DNA of 63,817 bases, counting the filler, from Atractiella rhizophila (taxonomy: Eukaryota): the NCBI GenBank assembly GCA_021432655.1. It is 11 parts of 11 records of this genome, joined end to end, with 100 filler letters (N's around TTAATTAATTAA, not from the genome) between each part and the next. Parts side by side here need not be neighbours in the genome. Positions count along the whole stretch, not along the records: positions 42,265 to 49,154 come from MU272259.1; 10 more parts are not named here. One strand, written 5' to 3'. The position numbers and the translations under genes were made by a program. Below the pieces are notes generated by a model. That model was not told the DNA's origin, made no database searches, and worked only from the letters and a program-made list of their open reading frames with translations. The first letter of the stretch is position 1. Each line of letters starts with the position of its first letter. Below are positions 10,001 to 63,817 of the stretch, piece after piece.

Positions 10001-10485
10001 GTCAAAGAAACCATTTTACTCTGCCCCAGCGCTCCTTCCGTCGCAATGTCATTGAGCTACTGGTCCATTTCCTTTGTTTTTTGAGGTTTGGCGAAACCGC
10101 GAGAGCACCGCATGCATCCTTATTTCAAAAGCACGACGGGTTTTGACCATGACTCACGCATGTACTTTTGAGCCCTTATATCACCGCCCACAACAACCCT
10201 TTCAGAATTCTGAGTATACCACCAGAATACGCGTGTCGGCGCCTTTCGAACCGTATACAGCAAAGACTATTTGAAACATGAAAAAAAATTAGCTTCAAAA
10301 CTAAGTCAGGTGACTTCTCCCCGAGGGTTAGGTTAGTAGCTTTTGATGTAGAAAACATAAAAGCTCTCGATCCTGGTTGCTTCAGGACCAAGCTTTTCCG
10401 GTCAGAAAAGGGTACTCAAGAGTTCAAAAGAAAAACATGCAATTCTCTGTGATTTTCTACAGCGTCATGGCATTCTCCGTGATAT

Positions 10486-10766
10486 CACGACGGGCAAAAT
10501 TAGCTCCGCGAACCAAATTTCCCGGTCGCGGAGGTTATCTCCGCGACCAGCATTTCAATTAGCTCCGCGACCTGCCCCGCCCGGGCCATCTCAAAATGAT
10601 AGGCCGGGCAGATTCCGGCTCACCGGCTAAGCAACTCGAACTTGTTTCTAAGTGGCCAAAGTGGTGGCCGTGACAGCGTGGTCGCGGAGGTAATTCAAGT
10701 GCCGGTCGCGGAGCTTACCTCCGCGACCCGGAAATCCTGTCCGCGGAGGTAATTTTGCCCGTCGTG
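10486..10766. mobile_element. 281-bp MITE with ~87-bp imperfect terminal inverted repeats and 3-bp TSD (CMC/EnSpm-like ends)
   Basis: Left end CACGACGGGCAAAATTAGCTCCGCG; reverse complement of right end CACGACGGGCAAAATTACCTCCGCG; repeated CTCCGCGACC sub-motifs; flanked by TAT at 10483-10485 and 10767-10769. Confidence 0.8.
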
Positions 10767-11453
10767 TATCCTGCACTTCATCTGCCCCTGCAGTTCGTAG
10801 TGCTGGTCCTATCATGGTTTCCGAAGAGGAGGTAAGTTCCTGTTCCATTGAACCATCGAAACTGATAAGCAAGCCAAGTTTTGGACTAATTGGGCCACTG
10901 GAAACTTGACCATTGACACTGCTTTTAAGTCAAATTTCGACTGCCTCAATGTTGACTGAAATATGTCCACAGGTTACGGAGCGTGTTCTGTGGTAAGCAT
11001 TTTTCATAATCTGAGTCGTGGACACCAAAACGATTTCTACAGAGTTGCAGCAGATGCTGCTCTTGCGTTTCCTCCCAATGCACCGGAACTTGGTAAGAAA
11101 TCTCGGAGAAACTGAGACCACTTAATCAGTCAGTCAGATCAAGCAACCAGGCCTTCAACAACAAGGAAAAATCAGCCTTACTATTTCCACAGTGTTCACA
11201 ATGTGAAAGTTCTTCCCCTTAAGAAACTCTTTTGGTCTCTGTCAGGGTTCACTTATAGAGCATGACACACATTCTGGAATTTGTAGCAAATGGTCTGGAA
11301 CGTTCTATCAGACATGTAGCAAATACAGGTAATGGTGGAATACGCTGGAACATTCTGGAACCTGTGGCTGTTTGTGTATAAATACCCCTGCCAATGGAGT
11401 GAGATATCCAGATTGGTTCTCTTAGGATATCCACTCTACTTGGCAGGTTAGTA

Positions 11454-11577
11454 TCTCTCTTGTATCATTGTAATAACAAGTGTGTCATCGGCCTTCGTCC
11501 CTCAGGCCCCCCAACCCACTCGCAAGGGGCATGGCCCCTTGAACCCTAATGTGACTCTTGTGAGGGTTCAAGTCTAG
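11454..11577 (+). mobile_element. Possible tiny non-autonomous Helitron-like insertion
   Basis: A|TC...CTAG|T boundaries; hairpins CAAGGGGC-ATG-GCCCCTTG and CTTGAACCCT...AGGGTTCAAG just before the CTAG. Single copy in the window. Confidence 0.25.
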
Positions 11578-13545
11578 TATGAAATGCATTGTTTTTACCT
11601 CTGCAAAATAAAATTTCTTTGCAGGTTCAGAAAGGTGCAAGCATATTCAATAAGGTGGTGCAATTCATTTCATTTTAACATGCCTGCTGAGGGAGATATG
11701 AACGTTAAAAGTACGTTTTATGACTCATGCCAAGAACTGATGAATCTTAGAGGAATAGATATTTAGGATATCCACTCTTCTTCTTGGCAACCCCTTACTT
11801 GCAGAGTGACACTTCTTGAATGCAGTTTGTTCCTCATAGTCTCTATGCAAATATCTAACAACTGTGTAGACGATTACGTTATGATTAGACTTCTCATCAT
11901 CAGACCACCAATACTGCTCTACTTTGTGGGTGAAAGTGACAACTGTCCATTGCCTTTGGTAGTAGTGCACCTGCGAGCTTTCTTTTCAGTGAGCTTTGCT
12001 GTCTGTCAGGGTGGATGCAAAGGTGTATGAATGTGACATGTCAGGTTGCGTACTGTGAGGACAATGCTAAGTGGAAATCCTGAGAGAACAAACTAGGTCT
12101 CTTAGTGGCATTGTGCTTGCCTAAATACATAAAATGGTGCACAGCTACAAACAATAACTCTAACTCTATCTAGGATAGGGTATAAAGGTCACATGATATG
12201 TAGAGCAAAAAAGGTGGGGAAATAAGAACACCAATAAAGCAACACAAACATAGATTGAGCCTGTGACTCCAAATAAGCTAAAATAGGTGATCTGGGGTCG
12301 ATCCTGACACCGGCTTAGAATCACTGATTGATCTGGAAGAAGTCTTTGCTTCGTCCCTTTCTGTACCAGAAAACTTCTCTCTATCATCTTGTTTGAGCGA
12401 GCTTACGGCAGCTTCATAAGGAAGCAATGACTAACTAGGAAATCTTGACACCGTTTTGACTTTTCTTTGAAGACGCATCGCAAAAATGGTTCTCCAGGGT
12501 TGATGAAAACTTGAAATCAAGTAAGATTTGCGAAACAATAGCTTCTCACTTACTCTTGAAGGTCGATGCAACGAGGATATCTAACCTTGGACAATTTTTT
12601 CTACGGCCCAACAATTTTGACTCGGGCCCAGAGCCCGAGCCCAATAGCTAGAACGTGGATTTGGAGTTGAAATGTGACTTTTTTGAACCGACTCAGACTT
12701 CTACTAGTAGCCCAATATCTATCTTCTACTCATACATGTGGTACCCAGTACTCAATAACTAAAACGAGCCAGCTCCCCACACCCTAATTTTCACTTCGTA
12801 TCCTGCTGAAGTTGACGTCCCTCCGATTCCGGATTCCCTTTCACTGGCTTAAGCTTCTCCGGAGAAGATTTAATTCCTGTGCAGGTCGCGGAGAGTGTGA
12901 CAGCGCTGCGGTAAACCTAATTCAGAGGTCTGAGCGGATCAAGAGGAAGACAAACGTAGGCTCTGGAACGTCCCTTTCAGAGGAGTCAGAGTCATCCTCA
13001 GAGTCGTCTTCAGAGTCTCCAGCTGATGACTCGCCCTCACGGGCTGGTGGCTTGTCGTCACGGCCGCCACCCGATGATTCCTGACGCCAAATTGCGACCA
13101 TGACAGTGCTAGAAAGAGTAATGAATGAGAGGGAGGGGCAGGGACACGGAGGCAAGACAAACGTAGAACTCATATTTGTAAATATTACAGTGGCGGGCCC
13201 TTTAACAATGGTTTTCTAGGCGGCGCGCAAGGTCACGTCTTCAAGGTCACAGCTCAAACAAGGGACACACCTTAACCCCCAGTAAGCCGTCTTCTTCATC
13301 CACCTCCATGTCTCCCTCATCTCTCTTCACTGCTCCGTAAATTATTTTATACAGTACCTTTCCACCCTTAGCAGACACCTCCTCAGCGTCCTCCACTGCA
13401 TATTGCTGTGGTTTTTGGGGAAGGATCTTCAAACAAATCGGGGCGGAGGTCATTATCCTAAGACGTGCAGAGCGCGAGTAGGCCATTCAGGCGGGAGAGG
13501 GTCGCTTTATGAGGTGCCTTCATGGGCGGGTGAAATAAGCCTAGA

Positions 13546-13616
13546 GAAGGCCACAGAAGGCCACAAGGCCACAGAAGGCAGAGAAGGCAAATAAGGCCAG
13601 ATAAGGCCAGATAAGG
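13546..13616. repeat. Degenerate ~10-bp tandem repeat
   Basis: GAAGGCCACA / TAAGGCCAGA-type units, about 7 copies. Confidence 0.7.
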
Positions 13617-14043
13617 TAGACAAAGCTAGAAAATCTCTCAGGTTCATCGCTGCCGTGCCCCTTGTGGTGCGAATAAGAGAGAGCTGAGCTGAGAGACGCA
13701 GTACAACAGGACAAACCGCTCTTTTCCCTTCCTCTCCTTCAATTATTAGCCGACTATCCACCACTACACTATCCTTGCTCGGTCGTCATCAGTGAAAGTC
13801 GACTGTTAAGAGACAGCACTATGGTTGTTAAGATTGCAGCCACCCAACAGCGACTAAGGCAGGACGCCGTCGAGATGAAAGCCCGCCGCATCTCGCACAG
13901 ACACAGTATTCTGGAACTGTCCACCATCCACTTCTTTTGCTGGTTCTTCTCTCATTGGTACTTAGGGACGGATTTGTACCTGATGTTCCTGGTTCGTCGT
14001 GTCCTCTAGGTCTATACTATACTACAAGGCAAACTCAACGGAA

Positions 14044-22062: not shown

Positions 22063-24965
22063 ATGAATTCTCTCCAGGCCATTTACGAAAAAGAAACCAG
22101 CAAGCTCACTCAACTTCTGACGGAGTTGGGCAAACTGGGAATCAAGGATGAGAAGATCCCACTGCCCGGTATCATCGTGGTTGGAAACCAGAGCGCTGGA
22201 AAGAGCTCTCTAGTTGAAGCTATCTCCAAAGTACGCCATCCTCTCTTCCTCTCATAGTCCTCAATATGGTTGAGTAGATATCTTTACCTCGAGATGTGAA
22301 CACTTGCACTCGATGCCCCATCACGATTTCGATGTCGAATTGTCCTTCAATGGATACGGTCGAGTACAAGTTCAGCATCCAAATTCGATACGACCGTTCC
22401 ACCGGTGATGCCCTGACCGCTGCTGAATCTCAGACTGTGGATTTCGGGCAAAACAGCCAAGATCCCAGGGCTGTGCCTGAAAGGATTCTTCGCGCGCAAA
22501 TGTACCTGCGGCATTCGGATCTTTCCATCGATTACTGCCTCGAGACACCACTGGATACCCTGACGAACAAGTTCAACGACTTGGCAGGGAAGAAGCAATT
22601 CTCAAAGAACATCATCCATGTCGAGGAGATGGGCCCTTATCTTCCTAACCTTGTATTCACCGACCTACCAGTGCGTGTGTCGCCAAACAGCATTTGTTTC
22701 TACGTTGACCTTTGATTGTAGGGAATAATCAGCAACACTGGGAGCAATTCATCCGAGAACACTATCGAGTTGGTGCAGTCTCTCGTTGCTGAGCAGATGA
22801 GCGTAGAATCCAACATCATCCTGGTGGCCATGCCAATGACAGGTCCGTTCATTCTCTATCCGCTGAACGGAACTGAACTACAGACCTAGATGACATGAAC
22901 AACCAAGCTGCATTCCGACTTGCCGCTGCCGCTGATCCAGGGGGCAAGAGAACAATTGGTCCTTTCTTGTATTATGAATCAGGAGTCTGAGTCTGACTTT
23001 CAGTAGGAGTCCTCACTAAGCCAGACTGTGTGAAAAACCCAGCCGAAGCAAAAGCAAAGGGAAGTCAGCTTTGAGCCAAATGCAGCTGGAACTAATCCTC
23101 CAACAGTGGTTCCGTAGCACCAAGCAAAGGGGTTACGGCTGCTTCTCTAGGTGTAAACAATGGAGACTTCTGCCTCATGATGGAGGCCTAAGCCATCGGT
23201 TTGACTTTATTCCGCACACTGGTCTCTAGACGGAGAGTTTAACGAACATCTTGTGCAGTTACGAAACTTGGTTTGGGAGCAGAGGACCTACTGTCACACA
23301 CACCCGAGGACTTGACGGAGCGGTTCAGGACCGTATGGTACACTTCAAGCATATAGCCTAAAGGTCTTCCGAGTTGTCCTTCCCGAGACCAAAGCTCCAG
23401 CTAACTAAAACTCCGCTAGCTGATAGTAAACCGCTTAGCAACCTTCCGATTGCTGTGGAGTTAGTGTAAAACTATTGACCACTTCTTCATCTGTTTGCTA
23501 AACGCTTTAGCAAGCGACTCTTCGAAATCATGTATCGTAATCCCACAACTAATGTAGGCGAATTCTCTAGGCATGGAACTGGTTCATTCACTGTTCCCTA
23601 GGCTACGGGGTAGGCTAGTTGGAGTAGTACCAACGAGGTGCCGAGGAGCAAAACTTTCATGTTGGAAAGGAAAACCTAAGGTTGGACCACAGGAGAGAAC
23701 TAACATAGGACCAACGTACCACTACTTTATAGGTACGAACTCGCTTTTTAGGAACAACGACAACAACTTTTGCCCATCNNNNNNNNNNNNNNNNNNNNNN
23801 NNNNNNNNNNNNNNNNNNNNNNNNNNNNNNNNNNNNNNNNNNNNNNNNNNNNNNNNNNNNNNNNNNNNNNNNNNNNNNNNNNNNNNNNNNNNNNNNNNNN
23901 NNNNNNNNNNNNNNNNNNNNNNNNNNNNNNNNNNNNNNNNNNNNNNNNNNNNNNNNNNNNNNNNNNNNNNNNNNNNNNNNNNNNNNNNNNNNNNNNNNNN
24001 NNNNNNNNNNNNNNNNNNNNNNNNNNNNNNNNNNNNNNNNNNNNNNNNNNNNNNNNNNNNNNNNNNNNNNNNNNNNNNNNNNNNNNNNNNNNNNNNNNNN
24101 NNNNNNNNNNNNNNNNNNNNNNNNNNNNNNNNNNNNNNNNNNNNNNNNNNNNNNNNNNNNNNNNNNNNNNNNNNNNNNNNNNNNNNNNNNNNNNNNNNNN
24201 NNNNNNNNNNNNNNNNNNNNNNNNNNNNNNNNNNNNNNNNNNNNNNNNNNNNNNNNNNNNNNNNNNNNNNNNNNNNNNNNNNNNNNNNNNNNNNNNNNNN
24301 NNNNNNNNNNNNNNNNNNNNNNNNNNNNNNNNNNNNNNNNNNNNNNNNNNNNNNNNNNNNNNNNNNNNNNNNNNNNNNNNNNNNNNNNNNNNNNNNNNNN
24401 NNNNNNNNNNNNNNNNNNNNNNNNNNNNNNNNNNNNNNNNNNNNNNNNNNNNNNNNNNNNNNNNNNNNNNNNNNNNNNNNNNNNNNNNNNNNNNNNNNNN
24501 NNNNNNNNNNNNNNNNNNNNNNNNNNNNNNNNNNNNNNNNNNNNNNNNNNNNNNNNNNNNNNNNNNNNNNNNNNNNNNNNNNNNNNNNNNNNNNNNNNNN
24601 NNNNNNNNNNNNNNNNNNNNNNNNNNNNNNNNNNNNNNNNNGCAGCTACTACCTGACTCGGGCAATCAGTCTTTTCTCTCGTCGTTTCGAATACATACTG
24701 ACTGAAATATGCTGTGGACTTCTTCTGTAGTATTCGTTTTGGTGTTGTGCCGAAAACCATCACTCAGAAATACCTACGAGAACTCGGGGAGGCGATGAAT
24801 AGTGCTCTGATGAAAGAGTGCACGCCAGATCCAGATAACGGAAACTATGAAGAGTTGAAAGCCCTGGTAGCTGAGGACCCAGAAGTCACGCTAAAGAGGA
24901 AAGAACTCAAGGCGTCTAAAGAGAAGTTGGAGTCTGCTCAAGCGGAATTGAGAAAGTACACTTGA
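22063..24965 (+). CDS. Mx-like dynamin-superfamily GTPase; multi-exon, middle part in a mirrored block and a gap
   Basis: G1 VVGNQSAGKSS, G2 TCTRCP, G3 TDLP|GII, G4 GVLTKPD, split by short introns (e.g. 22231-22277, 22671-22721). C-terminal GED-like exon RFGVVPKTI...LVAEDPEVTLKRKELKASKEKLESAQAEL* ends at 24965. Confidence 0.9.
23110..23778. other. Mirror-reversed (reversed, not complemented) block holding dynamin middle exons
   Basis: Read right to left it continues the exon-start TGG at 23107-23109: W-LPVFNNSNKDFSLKHGYFITMQP...ERLYFQNEEPWS...LVTYLVK|LLSERFRK|..LPTIRQ...HPGDEGLVQSIDVFYKQFERQI, with GT-AG introns and a few single-base indels. Confidence 0.93.
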
Positions 24966-29410: not shown

Positions 29411-30229
29411 GAGGAAATATGTTAGTATTTCCATTTTTCTTTATTGAGGATGTTGGCTAATGTGTCAGGAAGCGTCCATTGCGTTGCTAACGTCGCATAG
29501 CGCAGTGTAAGAAGCGTCTTCTTGTTGCGCGAGTCTCCTACCACGACCTGCCATTCGACGCCTCCGAATCTGCCGCCCCCCCTACCCACTCTCTGTGCTC
29601 GTTACTATGTCCTGGCACCCTACGTAGCATCAGCGACAAATGAACATGTCACCAACTACTACTCAGACCGTGCACTATTGTTACTTGTGAAGTTAAAACA
29701 CAGACCTACAAACCCCCCTTACACTCTATCCACGTGACCTTCCTTCACCCCACCCAGGAGACTATGTGACCATAGGTTCGATACAACTTTTCCTTCCTGT
29801 CGTGATTTAGGGAAGGTAGAGGCTGCTTGGACGTTCAACGGGTGCGAGTAGACGTGAGCCTTGAGGGGCAAGAGAAAGTAGCTACCAGGACCTATAAGAC
29901 CTACCAGAAAAGCAATAGCTGCTTTTCTTTAGTTGCACATAGGCTGCTGTCCTACGAAGTGAAGGTACGGCGTTGTAAGCGGAATAGGGGGCGCGTTTGG
30001 AAAGGTGTGGTCTTCCTGCAAGACAGTTCGAGGTGGAGCGGTAAAGAACTGCCATGCTTGAAGACTCTACCTCAAAGCCTGACATCTTCCTGCAAATGTA
30101 GGGAGGCAGGTAAAGCAGGCTGGCAAGCAGGTAAAAGACCGATTCAAGTAAATCGACGATCCAGACGTGGTTACTGGATGGGCAAAGACGGAGTGATGGT
30201 CTCGTTGTAGCGAAGCGCGGAAAAGTTTT

Positions 30230-30745
30230 TACTTATGACTCTCAGCTTGGAAGAAAAAGAAGCTTCTCCAGCGAGTGGGCCACTCGCTACTTAGCATATG
30301 AGAAGCGTACATTCAGAAGAAAAACAATGCGCATGTTTGACTGTGACTAACCTCGGATGTCGCGGCCGGCGCACAACCTTCGAAACCACTGGAAACTGTC
30401 TCCCTGTATATTTGAGCATAAGCTGAGACTTCCTCCTCTCGACAACGGCAGTTGCGTGACCTCCCGATTTCAAACCGAGGTTCCAAGACGAAAGTAGTCG
30501 ACAGCCTCTACTTTCCGATTGTCATCTAAGTCCTGTTCTAACAGGTAGAGGAACGTGGACCTCTATATTCCCTTTCTTCATAGTGCTTTCATGCGGAAAG
30601 TGCCAGTAAAACTCAGTGGTGACTGAGAGTCTACTGTCAAAACCGGGTACAGGACTGAACAGTTAAGTCTGCGCCAAAGTTGCTGGGGAACTTCCTCAAT
30701 ACGTCCGAGACCTTCCGTTTTCGGATAGGTCACTTCTGTCTTATT
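30230..30745. CDS. Hidden small protein, copy A (~120 aa, four exons); readable only as the complement left to right, true strand minus after correction
   Basis: MNTESRTFFFFEEVAHPVSDESYTLRI|AGRVLEALVTFDRGTYKLVFDSEGGELLPSTHWRAKVWLQG|QDCPSPCTWRYK(one extra G)ERSITK|MTVLAHVLTCQFRRGFNDPLKELCRLWKAKAYPVKTE*. Donors GTAAGT, GTTCTG, GTACGC with CTGAC/CTAAC branch points and CAG acceptors. Confidence 0.7.
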
Positions 30746-31293
30746 TACGGACTACGAGTATTTCACTTCCCAAATTATAGAGAAAGGCAGACATTGCCGG
30801 GTCCCTGATGTCCTCTGTGTAGGCGGCACCAGCAGACGCGCTGTTTAGTCTAGACTACTAGAAAACTGAAGTTCAAGCATGTGAGGACGAGGCCTAGTAA
30901 ATGTGGGAAAGAGACGGTGTTTCAGGTAGAAGACGGTGCAAACGTAACCGCTGGGTATAGTAGAATAAAGAAGATACTCGATCACCGTTACTTACGGTGT
31001 AACCCTTGCAAGTTGGGGTTCGCTACGACGGAAGCTGCGAACAGGTGTCTCACTGACACAAGAGCTGTACTAACGAAGGTCTGCAAATACTTGGTCTACT
31101 CGGTTAAAATAGTCCGACTAGTGAAAACAGTACCTCCAAGCCTGAGATGCTCCTGCTGCTGTGTAAAGCACTCATACCAGACCTGGCAGGCAGGGAAGCG
31201 CCGTTAGATGAACTTAGAGATAAATTCAAGACCGAGAGGGCTAACGGGATGATCGTGCGAGGCGAGTGTAAAGGGATTGATGTAGGGACGCTC

Positions 31294-31811
31294 TACTTAT
31301 GACTCTCCGCTCTGAAAAGAAGAAGGTCCTCCAACTAGTGGGGCACTCGCTACCTAGAATGTACTTTTACATTTGGAAAGCCAACACAAATCCGCCATAT
31401 TTAAATACGTCTAACCTCAGATGTCACGCCCAGCGCACAAACTTTGTAACCACTGAAAGTTATCACCTTGTATATTTGGGCACGAGCTGGATCGTCCTTT
31501 GCTCCATGATGGAAGTTGCGTCAGCTCCCGATTTTAGACCAACGTTCCATGACACAGTATTTTTGTGGACTTGAGTTATCCTGATTGCCAACACTGATCC
31601 GGTTCTAACAGGTAAAGGGACGTGGACCTCTATATTCCTTTCTTCATAATACTTTCATGCGGAGAGTGTCAGTAAAGCTCAGTGTTGAGTAAGAGTCTAC
31701 TGTCAAAACCTGGTACAGGACTGAACAGTTAAGTCTGCGCCAAAGTTGCTAGGAAACTTCCTTAACACATCCGAGACCTTCCGCTTTCGAAGAGTCCACT
31801 TGAGCCTTACT
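31294..31811. CDS. Hidden small protein, copy B; tandem paralog of copy A in the same mirrored orientation
   Basis: Same exon layout. Last exon MTVLDHVLTCQFRRGFNDPLKELCRLWKAKASQVNSE* differs from copy A by a run of seven synonymous third-position changes and has its stop in the same position. One indel in exon 1 (read error or decay). Confidence 0.65.
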
Positions 31812-32463
31812 TATCGACTATAAGTGTTTTCCTGTACTACAGAAGGAGTTAGACGTTCTGCAATTTATCTCTAACTCTCACCCCCTCTGACAAGGCGGTG
31901 ATAGCGCGTAGAAAAACTCCAACTTTCGCAACTCCTTCTTTATAAGCAGGTCCTCGAGCTCTAACCTAGAGCAGACTCACGGCACTATGGTAACCACGTA
32001 CTACGTATCCGGGACGAGAGACAAAACTAGAAACGTTGTCTGAGACACCACGTATTTGAGTGTAGGCAAGATTGTAGATCCGCTAACCTACGAACTCTTA
32101 CACTCTTTAACGGAGGTGGTAGTCGGGTGTGCTTAGCTTGCTGCGCGTAGCGTTGATGACGCTCAAAAGTCTTAGTTTGCACACACTTTCTTCCCTAGTC
32201 TTTGTATGAGGATCGGAGATGCTACCTTCGCAATTGGGTTCAGTGCACGTAAGCCACCGTCTGGAACCTTGGGACGTGTTGTTACCATTTGCCTAGCAGT
32301 TTTCCCTTTCCCTTTTCTAACGTGTGCGAATTTAACTCGCGGCCTAGGAGTAGAGCATAGGTGTATTAATCAACATGTTGTTGTTAGAGCAGTATTCCGA
32401 TGTTCAGAGATGNNNNNNNNNNNNNNNNNNNNNNNNNNNNNNNNNNNNNNNNNNNNNNNNNNN

Positions 32464-42264: not shown

Positions 42265-44036
42265 TGTCATTGATTATCGTCGCAGAATCAAAAGGTACTC
42301 TCTTTCTGCTCTGGTCAACTTTATCGAATCAGCGACACCTGAAATCCTCGGTCCTTTCCTTGGAGGTCTTCTACAGCACCTCGTCAACGCCTTCAACACT
42401 GGCGACGAATACCTGCAGGAGGCAGCTCTGAATGTCATCAGCTCTATGGCCGAAGTTGCAGGTCCAGCCTTCAGGGACTTCTACCCTGCTCTTGCACCTT
42501 TATTATTCGCCGTGGTAGAAGACAAACATCAAAATTTGCATATGAAAGCGAAGGCTCTTCAGACGGCTACCTGTATCGGTCTGTGTTTTGACTCTGTGTT
42601 GGTTTGAAACTGAATATGGAAGCAGCTGCGTGCTGTGACATTAGCACAGCTCATCAAAGCTCAGTGGAGCAGATGGGCCATTCCCTGTTAGACCTTCTGC
42701 GTAAGCTTCTCGGCCCTGCTTCCTGTTCTTGTATCTGAATTGGGATACAGAAAATCTTCACCATACCGAAGAGGAAACGGAGACTCTCCGAATCGTCCTC
42801 ACTTCCTTCGGACAACTGGCACAGGCGCTCGGTGCTCATAATTTCAAACCATATCTACCCCAGCTCCTTCCTATTCTTCTAGAGAACGCTGCTGTTCGAC
42901 CAGACGTCTCCTTAACAGCCAAAGACGAGGCGGATGAAACGGAAGAAGAAGAGGGATGGATTTACCTCGATGTTCAAGGACAACAGGTATGCCATCTCTT
43001 GTTTAGGAGGCTCCTAAGACATCTGCGTAGGTTGGAGTGCAAACCACACATCTCGAAGCAAAAAGCCATGCATTAGACACGTTGAAAACTATCGGCGCTG
43101 TAGTGGGCAATGGGATGCAGCCGTGGTTGGATCAGTTGGTCGACATCTGTGTTCCGTTGTTGAAGTTTTATTGTATGTCCTGTTTCGCTGACAATGGGAC
43201 CTCACTCATTCTGCATTTTCTTAGTCGATGAAGGGATCCGCCTGGCCGCCATACAAATGATTCCAATCCTCGTAGCCGGTGAGCATACGGCTGAACCTCC
43301 TTTGCCAGAATTTGACACAGTCTTCAGGCTATAAAGACGAAAATTCAGAGGTCGATAACTTTCAAGTAAATTACATCAACCGTCTATTCAAAGGTCTGGC
43401 CGATTTGATTCAAATCGAAAACGACCCTGCGATCCTCGTGGAGTTGCTCCAAGCTTGGTTGGCGTCGTTTCTGGCATTCCCCCACGCCATCTCCACCTCC
43501 CAAGTCGAACTTATGTCGAAAGCGCTGAAAGTTCAACTGAAGGAGGTGATCATTCGAGCGGATCTCGAGCGGGTTGAGCTGCAAGCAGAAGGCTGCCCCA
43601 AATCAGCAGAAGATGGCCAACCTAGCGAATTCATGGTTGCTTATGAGCTCAATCGATGTTTGCGAGAGCTGTTGCGTTATCAACCCGATGGGTTTAAGCT
43701 AGACGAATTCCTGACGAACCTCACTCTGGCAACTCGAGAGGAGCCTTATCTCAGGCTCTTCGCCCTCCGACTGATGTGCGATCTCATCGAATTTACCGGC
43801 CCAGCATGTTTCTCTGCAATTTCTGAATATCTACCTCTTCTTCTGGCTGGCATACAAGATCCTGGTGCGTTAGTTTAGATTTTACACGCATTACTGATAG
43901 TGAAGTTTAAAGAACCTTTCACAAGAAGGGTATGCTCGTACGGCATTGGAATGATGGCTGCATTTGGAGGTGATCCCTTTCGTCCAGTCGCTGAGAGTAG
44001 GTGTGTCCGTTGTGTAGGCCAAATGCTAACAATGTC
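42265..44036 (+). CDS. Importin-beta family HEAT-repeat karyopherin (importin-5/Pse1-like, divergent); 5' truncated, last exons mirrored at ~46114-46456
   Basis: ALVNFIESATPEILGPFL, FRDFYPALAPLL, FKPYLPQLLPILL, EEGWIYLDVQGQQ|VGVQTTHLEAK, PLLKFY|FDEGIR, CSYGIG. Confidence 0.85.
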
Positions 44037-44201
44037 NNNNNNNNNNNNNNNNNNNNNNNNNNNNNNNNNNNNNNNNNNNNNNNNNNNNNNNNNNNNNNNN
44101 NNNNNNNNNNNNNNNNNNNNNNNNNNNNNNNNNNNNNNNNNNNNNNNNNNNNNNNNNNNNNNNNNNNNNNNNNNNNNNNNNNNNNNNNNNNNNNNNNNNN
44201 N

Positions 44202-46456
44202 AAATACCAAGCAGAAAGAGGGCAGAGTAAGAATAGAGTACAGCCAGCCACAACTTGAAAAAAAAAAAGGCCCCCGAGCCAGTCCGAAACCGTCTTCGAA
44301 ATGGAAGCTACCGCGTGCACTTCGCTGGCAGGTTCAGGTAGTAGCAGTTGTTTAGGGACCTTATGTAATTGCTCAGCTACTACGCTCTCGCTATGGAGCG
44401 GTTCCTCTTGGAGCTGGAAGCAGCACTCCAACTGCTCGAGGCGGTTGCTGATCCCTACGGCTGCGAAGGAGGAGGTGGCGGAGTGTAGCACAGGCGGGAG
44501 TGGGTGAGGGTTGTTCAGGTCGGAGCAAGAGGCTTGGAATGTCCACGTTAATAGCGTGGTAGCGGAGGGTAGTAGCAAGGACCGGTCTAACGTCAGGGCT
44601 GAGGAAGACCTCCGCAAAGTCGGCGACTTAAGCGGCGTCGGCAGGTTCGAGTCTTAGTTCGACGTCACGTTCGACCTATGCCAGCAGTTTAAGGCTGAGA
44701 AGAGCGCGTTTCTCCTGTCTTGTAGGTAAAACCTTAGGGACGGCCAGGACCGGAGAAGGTACTAGGACGAGTACCTGACTGTTGACGACGCAACGAGAGG
44801 GGACGACCTAAGGTAGGGGTAGGAGTTCCTGTGGGGCAAGCTCTTGGGTCGGCGCCGAGTCGAGATAAGTCGGTGACCAGTTAACAAGCCGCGACCTGGC
44901 TACAACTCACGGGGCCGAGTCAGTCGACGTGTACCGTTAAGGAAGCTGCGAAGTAAGCGCCCACACGTATAGTTCAGCCTTAGCCTACTACTCTTCTCGT
45001 TCCTCTACTTCTTCGGCGGAAGCTGAAGACCTAGCCTTTCGGAGTTCAGCGGGTTGTGGAGTTCGTGAGGACTTAGGCGGAGGAGCAAGTAAAGACGGAG
45101 GGGAGGGCAGAGGCAGCGAGTCGTCGTCGTCGTTTAACGGCGCTCGAACCCGTAGCTAAAACGCCGGCGATTAGTGCGACCAGAAACCCCGTCACTTCGG
45201 CGTTTTACCACTGCTACAAGAACGAAGCAGACAGAGAAGCCTTCCTTCGTCCTCTCCCAGCTAGCGCGTCGTCCGAGTTGGATTAACCATATTATACTCA
45301 GACCTACGCTTGTTATCACGAATACCAGAGAAGCGAACTAAGCAAAGGAAGCTAGAAGAACTACATGAGCAGGAGAAGAGTTAGACCAAGCCAAGCCATG
45401 CTATACGCTGTACGCTGTACGATACGCCACTAGAAAGTCATACTCTTCGGAAATAAAGTAGGACCGAAGTTTAACGAGGAGAAAAGAAGTCTAACTACAA
45501 ATTTCCGAAGCCACTTCTATTATTCACAGCCTGTAGACATTTCAAACCAGACGAGAAAGCATAGAAGAGTGAAGGCAGCCATCGCAAGACCAAGGGTAAT
45601 AATTGAGAATAATAGCTGAACTAATGGAGAAGAGCGAAGTGATTTTCTCCTACGAGAAGAGTCCAATGGGAAGAGTTGGGTCCTTATTTAGAAGTTGCCG
45701 AACGAAAAGTAGCAAGGAAATGGGCTTTGGGAAATAGGAGGTTACAGAATATAACTAGACAGCGACACAGATAGAAGTGGAGGTTGACCACTCCAACAAT
45801 AGGTTGCAGGTTGAAACCGCAAAGAGCTGAGAGTAAGGGGATGGCAAGAGATTAAACAATAAACCTTGACGAGGAGCAACAGCCTACAGCACACATTTTA
45901 AAGACGTATTAGTTATTTGTATGTATTTGTAATGAAACCTCGCCTAGGAACAACTCATCTCACTGGGGCTCTCCCGCTGCCTCGTACTTGTACTCCTACT
46001 GTAACCGTAGTTTCTAACTCTTGAAACTTTCCTTGCTGCGCTAACTGTTGAAGTTGACTTGCTAAACGTCGTCCATTTACTTGTGTAAAACTCCAGACCA
46101 CTGGAAAGGAAAGAGTTCGTCTGTTATGTCACCTCTACTTTTTTGAACTGGCTTAGACCGTCTGAAACTTTCCGCCGCCAACCCAGAACTTTAAACCACT
46201 ACATTCAGGCATTCGGGACGCGCTACCTTAGTGCCATCTCACGACCTTCCCGTCCTAACACCATCCGCTCCATCTCCGACAACTGCTACACCTCGGGGGT
46301 CATCAGCCACTGCGAACTCCCAGATGTCAACCCACAAGGGACAACGTCGTCAAATCCTCAAACCCACCCTCGTTGGCACCCTTGAGTGGCTTACTAATCA
46401 AGGTTGTTCTCAGGGGTCTGTCGTAGGTAGAGCAGCGATAGAACGAGCTACCCATC
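44202..46456. other. Mirror-reversed block holding the 3' part of the bHLH gene (44202-45212) and the 3' end of the karyopherin gene (~46114-46456)
   Basis: Complement read left to right from 44202: FM|intron|ALAEALPSMAHVKRPSKSIIVNKSLEYINESMMRERYLAKENLDLRREVDELRQRLG...GSEAAKW* (stop 45210-45212). Read right to left from 46456: LPIEQDSDEMDAVWGLLLELIIR|EHP. Confidence 0.95.
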
Positions 46457-46762
46457 TCGACCGTTCAATGACTCCCTCCTCGCTCTCTCAATAGCGTTAT
46501 GCGTTGCCCTCCTCTCTGCCGAGCTCAAACTGCTCTTCTTCACTTTGCCACTCTTGGGGTCCAAACCATCTTCCCCAATCGCCCCGTTTCCTGACAAGTC
46601 CATGGCTCCAAAGAGTCCTGAGTCGTTTAAGTTGGAGCCATTGTTGGGCGAATTCGAATCGGTTTCGGAGGGAGAGGAAGCAGGAGGGTCGGAACTGGAG
46701 AACGTGGCTCCGGAGATGATGGAGGTAGAATTGGCGTAGTACTCTGGATGAGGAATCGTCAT
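46457..46762 (-). CDS. bHLH(-zipper) transcription factor, first part; remainder mirrored at 44202-45212
   Basis: Basic region AERRATHNAIERARRESLNGR joins in frame to FMALAEALP..KRPSKSIIVNKSLEYI in the mirrored block. Confidence 0.9.
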
Positions 46763-49154
46763 CTTTGCTAAATGATTATTTTCTCGGTTGGGAAAAACTG
46801 GTTCGGAAGGGACAATTGGTACGAAATGATGTGGCGATCGGTTTTCGGGACGATGCGAATGAAAGTACGAGGATTATGAACTCTTCTTCTCGGGACTGAT
46901 TGAGAGGCGAAAATCGACGGATGGAGTGCTGAGCGTTGATGAATCGGAATGCTGTAGAATAACCCGATTAGGACCGACCCACCAAACCATCCCCACCTCG
47001 CCCAACCTGCTGAGTCAAGGAGGCAACTCACCTGGATTTTCACAAAGAATTATCAACAATATCTTCTCTTCTCTCGACTGCGAGAGAAATACTGCACTCC
47101 TCAACGGTTAAGGAAATCGACAAGGTTGATGACACAAAGAAGTGGCCGAAGGTTTTGAAGAATACTCCTCTTTCTTCGGTGCAAACTACTCAAACCAGCG
47201 ACAAATCACTGACGAGGTGCGCCTAGGATGTTGGAAGTACCCTGAGAGCTCTGGTATGGGGAGTCGAGGATATAATCGCCTGGGTCGTTTCTTGTTTCCA
47301 AGAGCAGGATGGAAATCCGAAATCGACAAGGGGTCGCTAAGGGCTAAAGGCTTGTTAATAGCTTGACGAAAGCTGGCAAAGGCTGGTATAGGCTGTAAAA
47401 CAGGCTGGTTAAGCGAGGAAAATGGCGGTAATAGCTGAATGTCAGGGAGGCTCGCGAGTCTAGGAATTGGCCACCGTCCCTAGTCAACATTTTTCCTGCA
47501 ACAAAGAGTAAGGACATACAAAACTCAAGCGGCACCTATGACGAGGGAAGGCGGATAGAAGAGGCGGAGGGGGAGGGGCGACCAGAGATCACTCTGACAT
47601 CCAAAGCAGGCTGATGGGGGGAAGAAGAAAGTTGAAGTGTCCCTCCCTAATAAGAGCTCACTCCGGCTCCGGACTTCAATTCTCCCGGCTTGAATGCGAT
47701 CGGCGGACACCAGAACGTTAACCTCAACCCAGCCGAATGGGCAAACCTTAATCCTGGGTATAGAAGTTGTCTTATTAATGTTTGTGGCCACCACCCAAAT
47801 TCCCAAATTGTGTGGTCATTACACTTCAACATCTCTCTGTTTCTCCTGGCGCTACAGTTGTGTTGTTACTGCAATGCCAGCACTCAGCATTCAACCAAAG
47901 GGAGGCAGGCTTGCAGCCGATGGGAGAACAGGGTTGTTTAATTGCTTCCATTAGCGTTGCACTAAAAAAAGCGGGTCCGAAACCGATACATCGGATATTA
48001 ATTGGCTCTATCAATGCCAGATTTGCGTTTGAGCTTTCCGAGCTGAGGAGCCAATCACTCTCAATCTCCATCCAAGACGAAGGAGAGTCAAGGACATCGC
48101 CTGTCGACACGTCTCTGTTCTTCGTTACGGACACGATCCGGCGGCGCGCAGGCATTCGTGGTCGCTTCGACATTTCTGAGGACGACAACCGGCCCTTCAC
48201 GTCAGCTTTGCCTGTTGCTGTTGTTCCTTTCGTTGCCACATCGCATCGCATCACCGCATCACCAGTCACCAGAAAGGAAGCTGAAGGAAGGAAACAGGAG
48301 AGGGATCAGAAACGGTCCGTATCAGCAAATCGATTAGAGCCCCGCTTTTTCTTGCTCCCTTCGTGTTAAGGACACAAGGAGAGGACATTTATGTAAGAGC
48401 AGAAGGACGAATCGGGAGCACGAGAACGCGAGGGCGGGGACAATGAGTGAGTCCAAGAACCTCGCTGCTGTTTCGCGTTGCGCGATCAGTTGATGGAAGG
48501 ATCTTGCTTCATCTTCATCAAATCTTGCAGCGGGGTAAGTAGTGAAGAGTACAAACAGATTCGACTGTGACATCTCGAAGAGACTGTGCCTGTTGTTGGC
48601 AATGGACTGCCGTCACCAACACCAAGGACTGTGCATCGATGCAAGCACTTCCCCGAGCTATCCGGCCCGCATCGTTCGATTGATGAGGAGGAGGACAGGG
48701 CGAAATCTACGGGTCTGAAACAATTCCCCCTTCGAAGTGTGGGCTAGTTCCTACCTCGCTCTCCGACGCACAGAGAATGACAAATGCCCATGGGTGTCAG
48801 GTCCAAGTAGTGATTGACGGCTTCCATCCTAGATTCCCCTTCCTTTCCGTGATATCACAAGTTACAGTTTGGAATGGCGAGGCGCGAGCAGAGAGGGATG
48901 AAGGATGTGCTAAAAGCAGCTAGATTGGCGGATACCGAAAAGATCGTTTCCACCGAGGTCACCTTGAGGCAATGACAGCTGGGGACGATTGGCAGAGGAG
49001 GGAAGCTGAGCAGAGCAGGCTGGGAAGAGATGGGTGGACGAAGCCCTTTTATTTATGAGCGCGGAGGGAGCAGACTCGCGCGCATGCTAGCTAGGTGCCA
49101 TCGAAGCATGGAAAGGCGCACGGCTACGTGACCGATCACACTGAGGAGGGTTGG

Positions 49155-49254: not shown

Positions 49255-49769
49255 TTAATGTACTGCCCTTGCTTCATTCCATCAGACGTGAGCTGATACA
49301 TGAGACAGATCACTCTGTCGACCCAAGGAGGTGAGAACTCGACCTCGCTCTCAATTATGGTACTGAATGCTAGGGTCAGGTCATTCTTCTGTGCCACCAG
49401 TTCATACGGGTAGAGTTCTCTCCTTTTTATGCTCGAGCACAATGCTCACCTCTCCATGGCAGGGATTGGCATTATATCTCGCATCGTTACCACACTGGAA
49501 GCCAATCCTCACATCCCTGATCTTACACCCACCAACCCTTACTATACAATGCTCAAGTGTGGTGCCGAGCACAGTCCTGACTTCCCTCCCAAGCTGAGGA
49601 CCCTCGTGAAGAAGGCGGACACATGCCCTCACGCGAAGAAGCAGCTGGAGCGGGAAATCGTGAAAACCCAGCCACGGGCAACCGAGATGTTGTTTACAAC
49701 CAGTCAAGCTATTGGTCTGTTGGTCTATCTTTCTCCATGTACGGAGATCGTGATGAACCACGTTTAGAC

Positions 49770-50200
49770 ATTATTGGCGGCGGGGTGAAAGTCAATGCTC
49801 TCCCAGTACGCAACCGAATTCTCCCCTTGAAAGGCTCAAGTTGATTGTGTTACAGGAGCTCACCTTTGTTGTGGTCGACCACCGTATCAGGCCAGGAAGT
49901 ACACCTGAGGTGCGTAATTCTCATCATATCTTTCTGACTTCTCTGTGGTCGAGCGTAATGGAACTAGGACATCATGGAACATGTAGCCTCCCTTATCGAC
50001 CCGATTGCGCAAGAGTTCAGCCTTGATGTTGAAGCTTTTGGCATAAGCAGAAATCACTCGACTTCTGAAGAGTGGGGAGGAGCTCTCAAACTTACAGCAA
50101 TCAAGTGAGGCATTCAACTCCTCCAAAGCTTGCCTGCTCTGCTCATAACTTGAATGAAGGCCACTCAATCCTGCTCCGGTGTCTCCACCCAATGATGCTT
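49770..50200 (+). pseudogene. Possible decayed PP-loop (TilS-like) gene fragment
   Basis: IIGGGVKVNAL resembles a degenerate SGGxDSxAL loop and FVVVDHRIRPGSTPE resembles VDHxLRxxSxxE; stops follow downstream. Similarity judged by eye only. Confidence 0.3.
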
Positions 50201-50911
50201 GGGCCAAATTATCAGGTACTATCCGACATGTCTACGAGAATGATGAATATCCCAAGGTCATTGTTGCGCCGGCGATCATGACGGGTGAGCGCTAGGATCA
50301 ACATATGTGAAACTATTTTCTGATGAAAGAACTCTAATAGGAAACACTGATACACGTCACATGTGGCCACTAAGCAAGAGTATTTATCGCTTCTCTCCCT
50401 CCCATGCGTCCTCTACCTCGAGCGGCATCCCAGACGGGATTCACACTGTTAACGAGCGTTCATCTGTGGACGACCGTACGTAATCCCTAAGTCTTCGCGG
50501 TAGGGAGCTGATAAATATTGATTACAGTTGTTCGTGCCGCCTACTTCATTCACTCGCTGATCAAAAACTTCGATTAATCTGCGCCATTGTATTGATCGGC
50601 AGCCTGAAAGCAATATACATGTACCAGCCCAAAGTACCTTGTGCACCCCCTCGTTCTGCTAAACTTGTTGGACCTTGAGAATGAGGAGTCGCTGTCCCCA
50701 ATGCCTGTGCAGGAGTTTAGATCTCAGTCGGCATTAGCCTGAAAGCTGCAGGTTCAGGTTCACGCTATTGAAACTGTTAAAGAGACTCCCTCAATCAAGT
50801 TTACTCATCGCCGTTGAATAAAACCCGTGGTGGTCATGAGCGCGTATGGACACAGAAGATATAGATTTCAAAGCAATCCCAATCCCAATTCTACTGCATG
50901 CGGTAAGGTAC

Positions 50912-51517
<606 letters not shown>

Positions 51518-58575: not shown

Positions 58576-60764
58576 GCCATGTCCCAGATCGCGTCTGAGT
58601 GCCCGACGAGTGTCGTGATCTTCATGCTCGGGTCGTACGGAGCATATGTCTCCCGATCCCGTGATGGGATTGCCCAGACGTGCACGGTCGCGTCTAGGGA
58701 GGAAGAGTAGATACGTTCCTGTTGTGTAGACAGTGCTATACTTGTTACGGTGGAGGAGTGGCCACGGAATGTGACTTGGGGTTCTGTCTCTGGTAATGAC
58801 GACCGCATGCTGTATTCCAATGTCAAACAACGTGGCAAAAAAAATGGGAAAGGATACGCACTTGTTCGCTCCCAAAGACTGAGACGATAACCGCCAGAAT
58901 TTCACGGTACAATCGTCACCTCCACTCGCAATACTAAGATCTTGCCAATCGAACGCAATGCAGCGGACCGAATCCAAATGGCTGTCATCCATCGCATCAC
59001 ATTAGACTTTCAGAACCAATTCTTGCTCGAAAGCGAGGGATGAAAACACACCTTCTCAACGTCTTCCGTGCCCTCCACACCTTATGTCCAGTCCCATTAG
59101 TCTCCTCCTTCTCGTCCTCCCACTTTTCCTCCCCTCCCCTCTCCCCAATCTCATCTTTCTTCTTCAGCTTTTCACTCTTAACAGCCATCCCCATTCCTTC
59201 CCCCGCCTTCCTCAGACGCTCCTTCCACTCCTCACTACTCCCCGGCCTAAAAATGGCCGTCACCCTGTTCCCAACTTGCGACTCATCATATTCGCTAGCT
59301 GCAGCGGATAGATCCTCATAATCTGAGCCGGCAAAAGCGGAGGCGACTACACCAGCGGAAGAAGGAGGAGAGGACCGGTGCTCGTTCCCTTGTTGAGATT
59401 GGATCTGGGGAGGTGCAGCCTTCTCTTTCTCACGGAGCATGGTGAACATGTCGCCCGCAATGTGGCTCCCCGATCCATGTGGAGCTTCCGACCCTACGTT
59501 CGCGACTGGTGGTGCACCAGTATGGGGTAGAGGTTCACCAGTGGACATCGTGGAGGGAGGAGGGACGGAGTTGAGGGATTTCCGGATGCGAGGGATGCCG
59601 GACCATGTGTGGCTTGGTAAGGGATTGAGGGTCGCGTTCGAAGTGAGGTAGGTGATTTCTTGCAAACACCTTTCAACACCAAAACCGTTCACCTATGTCA
59701 TCTGAGGAGAATGGAAGACGAACTGCTTCAAATAATCCCTGCTCCTGGCCTTCCCCCGTCCTACATTCACCCCTCCTCCTCCCGCTCCTACTCCACCCCA
59801 AGTCCCACCAAAACGGTCCGCGACGTTGGGGAGGTCTCCATCACCTTTCAAGAGCGGGGAGCTAGCACCGGAGTCCGTTCCTCCGCGTTCTATGCTCGCA
59901 AGTGCAGCCACCTTGGAAGGCGGTATTGCGGACGCTGGATGAGCAGGTAAGGAAGCAGGGTGCGGTGGGACGGAGGTGGGAGGAGAGCTGTTAGGTCCAC
60001 CGGGGTGCGGAATGGCGCTGTTCAGGTTCGAGGTGAGGTACTTGGACCGCTCTTGTTTGAGCGCGAATTCGAGCATCTTCACCCGACGCATTAAATCCGT
60101 CTTGAGATTCTCCATCGACCGTCGTTCTCCTTCGAGCAACGCTATCCGTGCCTGCAATCAACGGTACATTAGTATTCACAGGTTATTTGCTAATTTCAAG
60201 AAGGATCAAGTGTGGCATTGACACTTGTAGCTCAAAAAGCCTATGTCTGTCTCTGCTAAACACCTCCTTCAATTTAGAATGTACGTCATTGAACCCTTCT
60301 GCTTCTCCCACGCGTCAAGGGGATCTAATATAAATGCATATGCAGTAGACTGGTGCAGAACGACGGTGTCCTCAGCACGCTCAGTTTCTTTCGAAATTTT
60401 TTTGCTCCAACCTGAATGTAAAGAAACGCAGTACCCTCATCTCAGCTCTCTCAATCTCCCACTCGTTCCTATCCCTCTCAAACTTCCTCCACTCCGCCTG
60501 CAAATAATGCAGCACGTTCCCCAGATTCATATGCACCATCCCTCCACCACCACCCATGCTTCCCACGCCAACTCCTGGGGGACCCATATGCTGGACATGC
60601 TGCTGCTGTTGTTGTTGTTGGCCCTGTCCCTGTTGCTGTTGCTGCTGAGGAGGGTTTGGGTTCTGGTCGAATATGGACGGCGGCTGTTCCTGCGCGGAAT
60701 AGGAAGGCTGCGAGTTCTGAGGCAGAGAAATTGAGAGGGACGAGGGTGGCTGCCACGGCAACAT
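58576..60764 (-). CDS. Striatin (STRIPAK scaffold, Pro11/Far8 family); 3' truncated
   Basis: LGNVLHYLQAEWRKFERDRNEWEIERAEMR|ARIALLEGERRSMENLKTDLMRRVKMLEFALKQER; SRDYLKQ|CLQEITYL; WD40 repeats SHLDSVRCIAF..SGGDDCTVKFW and FRGHSSTVTS; poly-Q N-terminus. Confidence 0.95.
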
Positions 60765-61460
60765 TGCAGAATCGAGGAGGGTATTACGGGGGATTAGCGA
60801 AAAGAGGAGAAGAAGTGTCGTGCGTGGTCGTGTTCAGTCGGGAGATAGGGTTAGGGCTCCTCAGAAAAACATGCAATTGCAATGTTTGTGAAATAACATA
60901 GCATTACGAACAGTTGTGCAGCAGTATGATATGAGAGCGATACCGTGTGGTGTTAGGCTGTTGCTTAAGACGTTGAGTTGCTCAATTACAGACTTCGCCC
61001 AGTGTGTCTCTTTCCTCGTTCTTCCAGCTCGGGTACAACCACTGGGTTAGTATGACGCTTCTCCTTCTTGTTCCCGTCTTCCTTACTATCCCCTCTTTAG
61101 CTTCCTCTTTTAATTGGCGCAGCTTAGAGGTATTTTCTTTCGTTCGCCAAAGTCACGTGACCTGACTGAACCTCAATATTTATCCTGATTTTTTGGTGTC
61201 ATTAACAATGCCTGAAGAGGGATGGTTCTGAATTCATGAAGATCTTATTCTCTCCTCTCTATTAACCTGAAAATCTTTTGTTCTCTTGGCATGCAAATGG
61301 AAATTATAATGATTCTTGCAGTGCTGTACCAAGTTTATGCTGAGGATATGACGGTACAAAATTGTGGAAACAAACAACATTACTGATACAACCACAGACG
61401 TTAGTTCTGTTGGCTATGTCACGCGCAGTGACTGCTGAGTTGGAGATATTATGGTCTTGT

Positions 61461-62588
61461 TCACGGATTTCGTTCTTCTGGAGGTCTGGCGCTATTTCTC
61501 AGCCACACATTCACAATAAATAGACAGGACGAACCTCCACTTGACGCCCAATATTCTAAAGATTTCTTCTTCACTTTCTCCCGCCACCTTCTCCCCATTC
61601 GTCGTCTTCGCTCCTCCCGCCTGCTTCCTCAGTACCTGTCCAATACGTGAGCCTCTGGTGTTTTGTTGCACCACACAATTTGATGAGACGAACCCCTTTA
61701 TACAGTCCACATTGGTTCAGACTGTACCCCATATGCCGAGCCTTCAAACGCAAGGATCGGTTGAAAATATCGTTTCCAGTGAAGTAGATCCACGCCGCAC
61801 CACGTTCATCCCAGGGAACACCAAGAATATCTACTCTTTTGTTAACACCTGGTCTTCTGGAGGCAACGGAAAGTAACAGACCAATGCGGCGCTGTTTGCC
61901 ATCAGGGGTCGACTTGCAGAGCCCCATGTAACTGGAGTCGCCGTCATACAAATTATATGAGGGAGGGGACACGCACCGAAAACTGAGCGATTCGTAGCAA
62001 TCCGGTTCACCCAGATCGAAGGTGATAATGCCAGCTTCCTTGAGCCTTCCGAGGAGCGGCTTGATCAGACCTACGAAGAAAGATCAGCTTCATTAGGATA
62101 ACTATGGGCGGAAATATGGGCGGAAACGGAGCTGCAAACCTCTATGATCTCTTCCGTGCGTTGGATTTCTCGTCAAACAAAAGTCAATATCCCCACTATC
62201 CTTCGCTCCTCTCCTGTAGGATCCCATGATGGTCAACTCCAGCCGTTTGTCCAAGCCCCTTGCTACTTCCTTCACCTTCTTCCCGATCAATTCGATCTCC
62301 TCTCGAGGAATGCGACACTTCAAATCTTCGTAAAACCTCAACCCGATCTCCTGCGCCGTACTCAGCTTAATCCCTTCAAATGTGCGCTCTCGCAAGTCTT
62401 CGATCGTTCGCGCTCCAGCTCGATACCATTTCGACGCCGTTGTCTTTCCCACTCCTACAGAATAACTGCATGAGTATGCATTCTTGGAGAGGCAGGAGCG
62501 AACCGTAAATGTCACTGAATACGGAGACCACCTTATCTTCCTCTGTCACCATCTCTAAACGACGATGATTACCGGTCTTGACAATCTC
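61461..62588 (-). CDS. DNA polymerase X family, Pol lambda-like; 5' truncated
   Basis: GVGKTTASKWY, IGLRFYEDL..RIPREE, MGSYRRGAKDSGDIDF, RRI|DIL, YFTGNDIFNRSLR, SEEEIFRILGVKW|RPPEERNP*. Confidence 0.93.
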
Positions 62589-62688: not shown

Positions 62689-63817
62689 TCCAACTCGCCC
62701 CTCTCCAAAATCTGGCTCGCGTCCCATCTCTCCTCCAAGCTCTCCAAAGCCGCCTTTCTCAGTCTCTCCATACCAACGACCATACCCTCCATCCTAGAGC
62801 CGCCCCAGAACGAACTGCCGTCGCTGCGTGTGTCCGGGCAGCTTTTGTTGGGCGTGGTACGCGTGTATTCGAGGAAGGCAAAGTATCTCTACGATGACTG
62901 TGGTGATGCGTTGCAAAGGATAAAGGGCGTGTTCTTGGGGATGACGAACAAAGGTGGTGGGAAAGTGGACATGGAGGAAGGGGAGGAGAGAGCGGACAAA
63001 AGAGCCATCACGAGGAGGAATGAGGGAGGCGCTTGGGATTTGGATTGGGAATGGCAGGGAGGGTTTGAGTGAGTTCTTTTTTACTTTCGACTGGTGTGTT
63101 GGGACCCGATAGTCCTGCGTGGCTTTCAAAATGGATGCCTTTAGATTCCTCTAACCTCTGCCATTTTCTGTGGATTGACATAGATGTAGTCATATGTGTA
63201 ACATTGCATGTCTAATGGCATGGCAAGTAGAAAACATTTGGTATGGAAAATCCATGCCCACTATACCCTCGTACTATCCGATAGCATTTTCTCAGACAAC
63301 AAGGGTCCCATGACGCAGGCACTCTTTATTTTTATTTTCTCTTTTCCTCAAAGTACGGCTCGCTAACTCTGTCTACCAGGGATGAACTTCAAGCTGCCCA
63401 AGGACAGAAGAAGAAGAAAGTTGCGGGCACGGCGAACGAAGAAGACATCACTCTCCCGTCCACCGGTCTCGAGACCAGTCTGATGGACGACACATACGCA
63501 TACGGTATGGACATGTTTGATTCCATCGAAGGAATCGGCTCTCAGGACTACGGTTACGGCGATGGGCTGGACCTTGGACTGGGAGACGAATACGACCTGC
63601 CGGGGAAGAAGGATGGTGAAGGGGATGAGGACGAGATGGATGTCGAGTTGGGACGTGACGCTTCTGTTTCTGCGAGAAGGGGAGGGGAGTATGGAGACAA
63701 CAGTCTCTTGGATGGACTTAATGACGTCTCTGGAGATGGTGAAGGGCTCGGATTGTTCGATAAGAGCCTGAGTGAAGATGGGAGGGGGCAAGAAGGCTTC
63801 GAGATGGACCCGTTGGG
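62689..63817 (+). CDS. RAD21: Cohesin kleisin subunit, Rad21/Rec8 family, Rad21-like; both ends truncated
   Basis: PLSKIWLASH..KLSK, SLRVSGQLLLGVVRVYSRKAKYLYDDC; ~310-nt intron (GTGAGT ~63069, GCTAAC, CAG ~63379); then EEDITL and VELGRDA. Confidence 0.88.

Follow-up and report, generated by a model that had tools for sequence, protein, structure and literature searches.

At the locus studied here, a gap of N's and a block of 2255 nt in which the letters have been reversed without being complemented (mirrored) lie between the middle exons of a predicted importin-5/Pse1-type karyopherin gene on the plus strand and the first exon of a bHLH gene on the minus strand. The window, that is the whole stretch of DNA analysed (63,817 nt), is a chain of separate Atractiella rhizophila scaffolds of about 7 kb each with spacers of 100 nt between them. 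The assembly (51.5 Mb, 1998 scaffolds) holds the locus in three copies, on scaffolds C1080, C196 and C91, with an identity of 97-99%, and other scaffolds of the window are likewise present in two or three copies. To judge from these sequences, the assembly seems to contain several haplotypes, and the strain is perhaps triploid or has mixed nuclei. The sequencing evidence consisted of four (X1-X4) of 24 listed runs, all as contigs rather than raw reads; X1 and X2 come from one sample, perhaps of DNA and possibly the source of the assembly, and X4 is RNA from a separate study. The features of the locus are the following.

42265-49154, unstranded: scaffold G000:C1080, 6890 nt, placed by assembly search
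42265-44036, plus strand: importin-5/Pse1-type middle exons in correct order, with five GT..AG introns spliced in X3 and X4 contigs
44037-44201, unstranded: gap of 165 N between the importin left flank and the mirrored block
44202-46456, unstranded: mirrored block, 2255 nt, reversed without complementing, matching C196 and C91 over its full length when reversed
44202-44207, unstranded: the Phe and Met codons that close bHLH exon 1, in the complement from left to right
44208-44284, unstranded: bHLH intron of 77 nt with GT..AG borders when complemented, removed by splicing in an X4 RNA contig
44285-45339, unstranded: bHLH exon 2, with the stop at 45337-45339 and the frame broken near 44836 and 45190 in the C1080 copy
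44379-45156, plus strand: two false 'exons' of the public protein P0003, 44379-44642 (with a short skip) and 44971-45156, residues 455-587
46114-46339, unstranded: last importin exon (EHP...TVLSA and the stop), readable right to left
46340-46388, unstranded: importin intron of 49 nt between the last two exons, readable right to left
46389-46456, unstranded: final part of the importin exon before the last (LPIEQ...IIR), likewise to be read from right to left
46457-46762, minus strand: bHLH exon 1 in correct order, opening with the first ATG (46762) and covering the basic region and the start of helix 1

Elsewhere in the window, scaffold G000:C1074 was placed at 7080-14043 by assembly search. 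The pieces at 49255-51517 (2263 nt) and 58576-62588 (4013 nt) are exceptions to the falling order of scaffold length, and the scaffold numbering leaves one out between C1077 and C1079.

As written, the block at 44202-46456 matches only itself within the assembly. Reversed, it aligns over all 2255 nt with E = 0 to C196 (98.6%) and C91 (98.9%), collinear with both flanks. The left flank (1772 nt) matches the two copies at 98% as written, and on the right, in a search with the letters as written, both copies resume matching at exactly 46457. The reversed block ends flush at the right flank, and the 15 letters before the junction in C196 are the first 15 of the reversed block. In place of the 165-N gap, the C196 and C91 copies have 215 and 217 nt, in which lie one importin exon and a portion of the following one. 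An order-3 strand-symmetric Markov model, trained on other scaffolds and blind to genes, also found that 44214-46453 is better read complemented. Loose contig ends at 46457 were observed in three of the four runs, and they carry the turned-round letters in 3/3 and the written letters in 0/3: in X1 and X2 they equal the beginning of the block in backward reading, and in the RNA run X4 the loose end is the spliced FM|ALAEALP joint, reading FMALAEALPS. At 44036, the loose ends in X1 and X2 are the letters present there in C196. Support for the written junction 46456/46457, named by the initial annotation as the observation that would speak against its reading, was found in no contig of the four runs. 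Depth is zero over 44105-46404 in all four runs with both sides covered, but this was not counted as evidence because the runs are contigs of which none joins across. Six private homopolymer insertions (7 nt), absent from both C196 and C91, and no private deletions were detected in the block, and in the left flank (1772 nt) there were 0 indels and 26 private substitutions; the C1080 copy is distinct from the other two. That the block is mirrored, as first proposed from the sequence, is borne out by the reversed match to C196 and C91, the loose ends and the exact boundaries, and the written order of 44202-46456 is a data error that does not belong to the organism itself.

The block interrupts the bHLH gene in the middle of a helix. 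In minus-strand translation, the frame as written runs to ...ESLNGR and then gives DG and a stop, just as the initial annotation had described it. The complement from 44202 onward gives FM, the GT..AG intron at 44208-44284 and then ALAEALPSMAHVKRPSKSIIVNKSLEYI, and exon 1 is tied to exon 2 because the RNA joint in X4 spans FM|ALAEALP, so that both translation and splicing agree with the continuation suggested earlier. The end of the tail had been put at 45212, which did not hold: in both gap-free copies the frame is open to the stop at 45337-45339, and the stop at 45212 is spurious because of a one-base insertion near 45190, the frame being already shifted near 44836 (two of the six private insertions, both in bHLH exon 2). 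In C196 the gene has 104 codons, an intron of 76-77 nt and 350 codons, giving 454 aa, and the 350 aa of exon 2 comprise the rest of helix 1, the loop, helix 2, a zipper-like stretch and a low-complexity tail. Exon 1 alone matches positions 1-20 of Pfam HLH with E 5.7e-4, just under the cut-off. The bHLH homologue P0002 reads RATHNAIERARRENLNGRFMTLAEALPSMADVKRPSKSIIVNK, unbroken across the junction that the block disrupts; it passes the Pfam HLH cut-off with 45 bits and also matches Myc/Max. The basic region and the two helices share one reading frame, as in bHLH proteins (PF00010). Other fungal proteins of the bHLH(-zipper) type, such as P0002 and P0013, carry the Pfam HLH domain (PF00010), but the sequence diverges outside the bHLH-zipper. 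The group is comparable to the Myc/Max-like fold (PDB 6g6j, 1r05), and the gene described here is a predicted bHLH factor.

The public bHLH model of the C91 copy (P0001, 341 aa) begins at a Met inside exon 2, and it is without the basic region and has no Pfam hit, though the C91 copy is in correct order; the cause of this loss is something other than mirroring. A search of public proteins with exon 1 gave 10 of at least 183 aa, none of them near-identical, which counts as weak evidence on how the copies of the gene are annotated. In run X3, contig depth reaches the thousands in the 5' region of the bHLH gene versus about 200 nearby, a measure that cannot rank genes, and splicing with CT..AC borders over 46951-47032 and 47459-47520 marks minus-strand introns upstream of the bHLH coding start.

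Read right to left from 46456, the block gives LPIEQDSDEMDAVWGLLLELIIR, the intron of 49 nt and then EHP, and the correct-order model of the C196 copy (P0004, 721 aa) ends ...IIREHP...TVLSA. Translation and P0004 together confirm the karyopherin C-terminus that the initial annotation had read there. P0004 matches residues 364-1026 of importin-5 (E 1.8e-66) and yeast importin beta-3 (4e-58), its match to importin-4 is far weaker (3e-17), and transportin-1 and importin beta-1 are also far behind importin-5. On the strength of this similarity, the plus-strand gene is a predicted importin-5/Kap121 (Pse1)-type karyopherin (PDB 6xte, 3w3t), this being the best match among solved structures over most of the chain. 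The comparison covers the C-terminal two thirds; C1080 begins inside the gene and the N-terminal Ran-binding part lies outside. The family has a length of about 1090 aa and P0004 is likewise without the N-terminal Ran-binding part; it is probably cut at the N-terminus, because a 39-N gap (L003:1490-1528) lies upstream of it on the same scaffold and its coverage spans only importin-5 364-1026. In the C1080 copy, insertions near 46295 (+2) and 46139 (+1) scramble about 50 residues of the last importin exon. The expectation that the block restores the ends of two genes stands in so far as the converging bHLH and importin ends lie within it, but reversal alone is insufficient and leaves both frames broken, because the fill has insertions, two in the last exon of each gene.

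The consequences can be seen in the public annotation. On the 6890-nt contig, a 587-aa 'ARM repeat-containing protein, partial' (P0003) tracks importin up to residue 454, and its residues 455-587 (133) are the mirrored block translated as written, i.e. the gene caller ran through the damaged copy and added an invented tail from mirrored DNA. The defect predates the annotation, because P0003 carries residues translated from mirrored letters. The initial annotation had held that the defect hides genes, and this is partly so: the damaged copy loses the true ends, but correct-order copies remain, and the importin end is annotated (P0004). The artefact thus both hides true sequence and creates false protein sequence.

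The defect is repeated in the window. Where three blocks in 64 kb had been proposed, we count four at three gaps, each supported by correct-order copies. Besides the one described above they are the following.

23110-23778, unstranded: mirrored block to the left of an 863-N gap (23779-24641), scaffold C1076
24642-24744, unstranded: short mirrored block to the right of the 863-N gap, C1076
29473-32412, unstranded: mirrored block to the left of a 51-N gap, C1077, 99.3% to C44 when complemented

The Markov model reads better complemented also at 29487-32365 and in the flanks of the 23779-24641 gap, and at the fourth gap (3913-4032) no mirrored block was found. The 51-N gap is truly closed, because the fill at 29473-32412 reaches 26 nt into the right flank. 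This block has 2 insertions and 2 deletions and hence no insertion excess. Within it, a sequence of about 540 nt is repeated with 77% identity. The last piece of the window (62689-63817) is the correct-order sister (95%) of a mirrored block on C60 (L092:1850-2983).

Sampling showed that the defect is systematic and assembly-wide, as the initial annotation had suggested from the window. We took 77 stretches by scaffold number, ignoring content, with 38 from C2-C335, 20 from C350-C910 and, from C960-C1160, 19 scaffolds in full length (L022, which repeats a piece of the window, was left out), and a two-state composition model found mirrored blocks in 12 of the 77. Blocks were carried by 11 of the 24 stretches with a gap versus 1 of the 53 without (Fisher p = 3.7e-6), and in the lone gap-free positive the block ended at the edge of the stretch and ran to a 532-N gap once the stretch was extended; since this exception reaches a gap just outside, the blocks are confined to gap edges. 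All six of the positives with a correct-order copy (L015, L018, L033, L042, L055, L092) held up when their complement was searched by BLAST, and the other six of the 12 are calls of the composition model. Mirrored letters make up 23,910 of 676,657 (3.5%) in the sample, and the size-weighted estimate is 1.34 Mb (bootstrap 95% 0.55-2.32 Mb) for the roughly 49.4 Mb in scaffolds down to the size of C1160, the smaller ones adding up to about 2.1 Mb. The edges given by the composition model are rough (L033 was overrun by about 1.2 kb and L055 begun about 400 nt late), it misses blocks below a few hundred bases, such as those of 58 and 113 nt, and L069 was called inconsistently. Mirrored repeats match one another as written, which reveals further blocks on C288, C121, C243, C147 and C51. 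The control scaffold G000:C196 has a mirrored block of its own (L004:2106-3927) beside a 172-N gap, called by the composition model only.

Every block borders on an N run at one end and meets a normal flank flush at the other. According to the model calls, 7 blocks lie to the left and 7 to the right, and a side bias was rejected with this balance. Likewise, a swap of the whole fill, with both extensions mirrored as one string, was rejected, as the two blocks at the 863-N gap each match the DNA of their own flank. The N run and fill together come within 2-11% of the true distance in all three filled gaps compared (2420 v 2463, 2991 v 2914 and 1635 v 1479). Gaps of exactly 25 N are 5 of the 33 sampled gaps and have a mirrored side in 5/5; outside the sample, one further 25-N gap (L081) has no mirrored side. 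In L015, the fill at a 25-N gap overshoots and duplicates about 2 kb of the far flank. Counting indels up to 2 nt, there are 31 insertions and 13 deletions in 18.2 kb of mirrored sequence, and 76 insertions and 50 deletions in 53.5 kb of normal sequence, where 31 of the insertions come from one raw-read-like locus; per base, short insertions are hardly more frequent in the mirrored than in the normal sequence. The skew to insertions is clear in 44202-46456 (6 v 0) and in two other blocks, and weak over all blocks. Fills are not all mirrored: beside a 25-N gap on G000:C1000, L015:3567-4240 (about 670 nt) is in correct order, insertion-rich and only 70-74% identical to its sisters, and has the appearance of one uncorrected long read that stayed in the assembly.

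With the true order of the DNA, the restriction to gap edges, the spread through the assembly and the insertion errors in the block observed, the mirrored blocks are almost certainly a software artefact of gap filling. The fill is very likely of long-read origin, and PBJelly, or a script around it, is probably the tool that was used. A short-read scaffold with a gap of estimated size would have been the starting point, into which a long-read gap filler would build a consensus reaching from one flank, and the N run would be shortened by the length of the extension. The extension would then be written with half of the reverse-complement operation (complement only or reverse only, which give the same text), presumably in a strand-handling branch striking only some extensions, and the mirroring acts on each extension separately, where it lies beside its own flank. 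The underlying DNA is ordinary, with the karyopherin gene and the bHLH gene convergent. Passages on PBJelly describe how flanks are extended, gaps reduced and overfilled gaps flagged, and they give PacBio errors as mostly insertions (PMC3504050); short gaps are set to exactly 25 (PMC6733440). The flank-into-gap fill, shortened N run, overfill and 25-N gaps seen here are the same as in PBJelly (PMC3504050, PMC6733440, PMC8848313), and the insertion skew, clear in three blocks but weak over all, may be another likeness; mirrored output is absent from the passages cited and the use of the tool for the A. rhizophila assembly is our deduction. No published description of a mirrored-fill artefact or bug was found in the literature covered, which has few subscription journals and no bug trackers or change logs.

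Alternatively, a scaffolder or format converter could have placed small contigs of minus orientation with half of the reverse-complement operation, which would also be expected to leave cleanly mirrored blocks in place, with high identity, and fits the lack of insertion excess in some of them. However, the blocks join one flank without gap or overlap and in every case meet N's at the opposite end, their sizes go down to 58 nt, and at 25-N gaps they overshoot into the far flank; the flush joins, the small sizes and the overshoot together indicate extension rather than contig placement, which makes misplaced contigs an unlikely source. Mirroring after deposition, during preparation of the sequence, might be suspected as the window is itself an artificial chain of scaffolds with spacers, but it is highly improbable, as the public P0003 already holds residues from mirrored letters. 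An ordinary inversion yields a reverse complement rather than a mirror. Least credible of all is a real molecule made in one haplotype by non-complementing copying or by a polymerase with A<->T + C<->G exchange ('swinger' DNA), for while such exchanges have been proposed with the same transformation of the text and sharp switches between regular and exchanged sequence (PMC7027195), and C1080 is a distinct copy with its 26 private substitutions in the left flank, the runs and sister copies show a regular molecule, the written junction occurring in 0 of 4 runs and the correct one in three, and the blocks lie only at assembly gaps, which are invisible to a cell.

A mirrored extension from gap filling, the reading preferred here, means that about 1.3 Mb (0.55-2.3 Mb) of the assembly is hidden from BLAST and gene callers, and read mapping would show false deletions there. 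Gene models may absorb nonsense from mirrored DNA, as with the 133 false residues of P0003. A simple strand-symmetric k-mer test detects mirrored blocks within seconds. It is conceivable, though we would not presume it, that a long-read gap-filling step in wide use has a bug that nobody has described, in which case many public drafts patched in the same way would contain kilobase blocks invisible in six frames, together with truncated genes and invented tails. If the cause is a common version of a tool, the same screen would clean many assemblies, and short-read fungal assemblies patched with error-corrected PacBio reads and PBJelly v12.9.14 (PMC12923307) offer a possible test set. If the bug is common, it would also be a plain explanation to try where 'swinger' DNA with A<->T + C<->G exchange has been reported, at least in some cases. 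For the biology of A. rhizophila, the locus holds two ordinary genes and nothing new, and odd features beside N gaps in its assembly should be checked for mirroring first.
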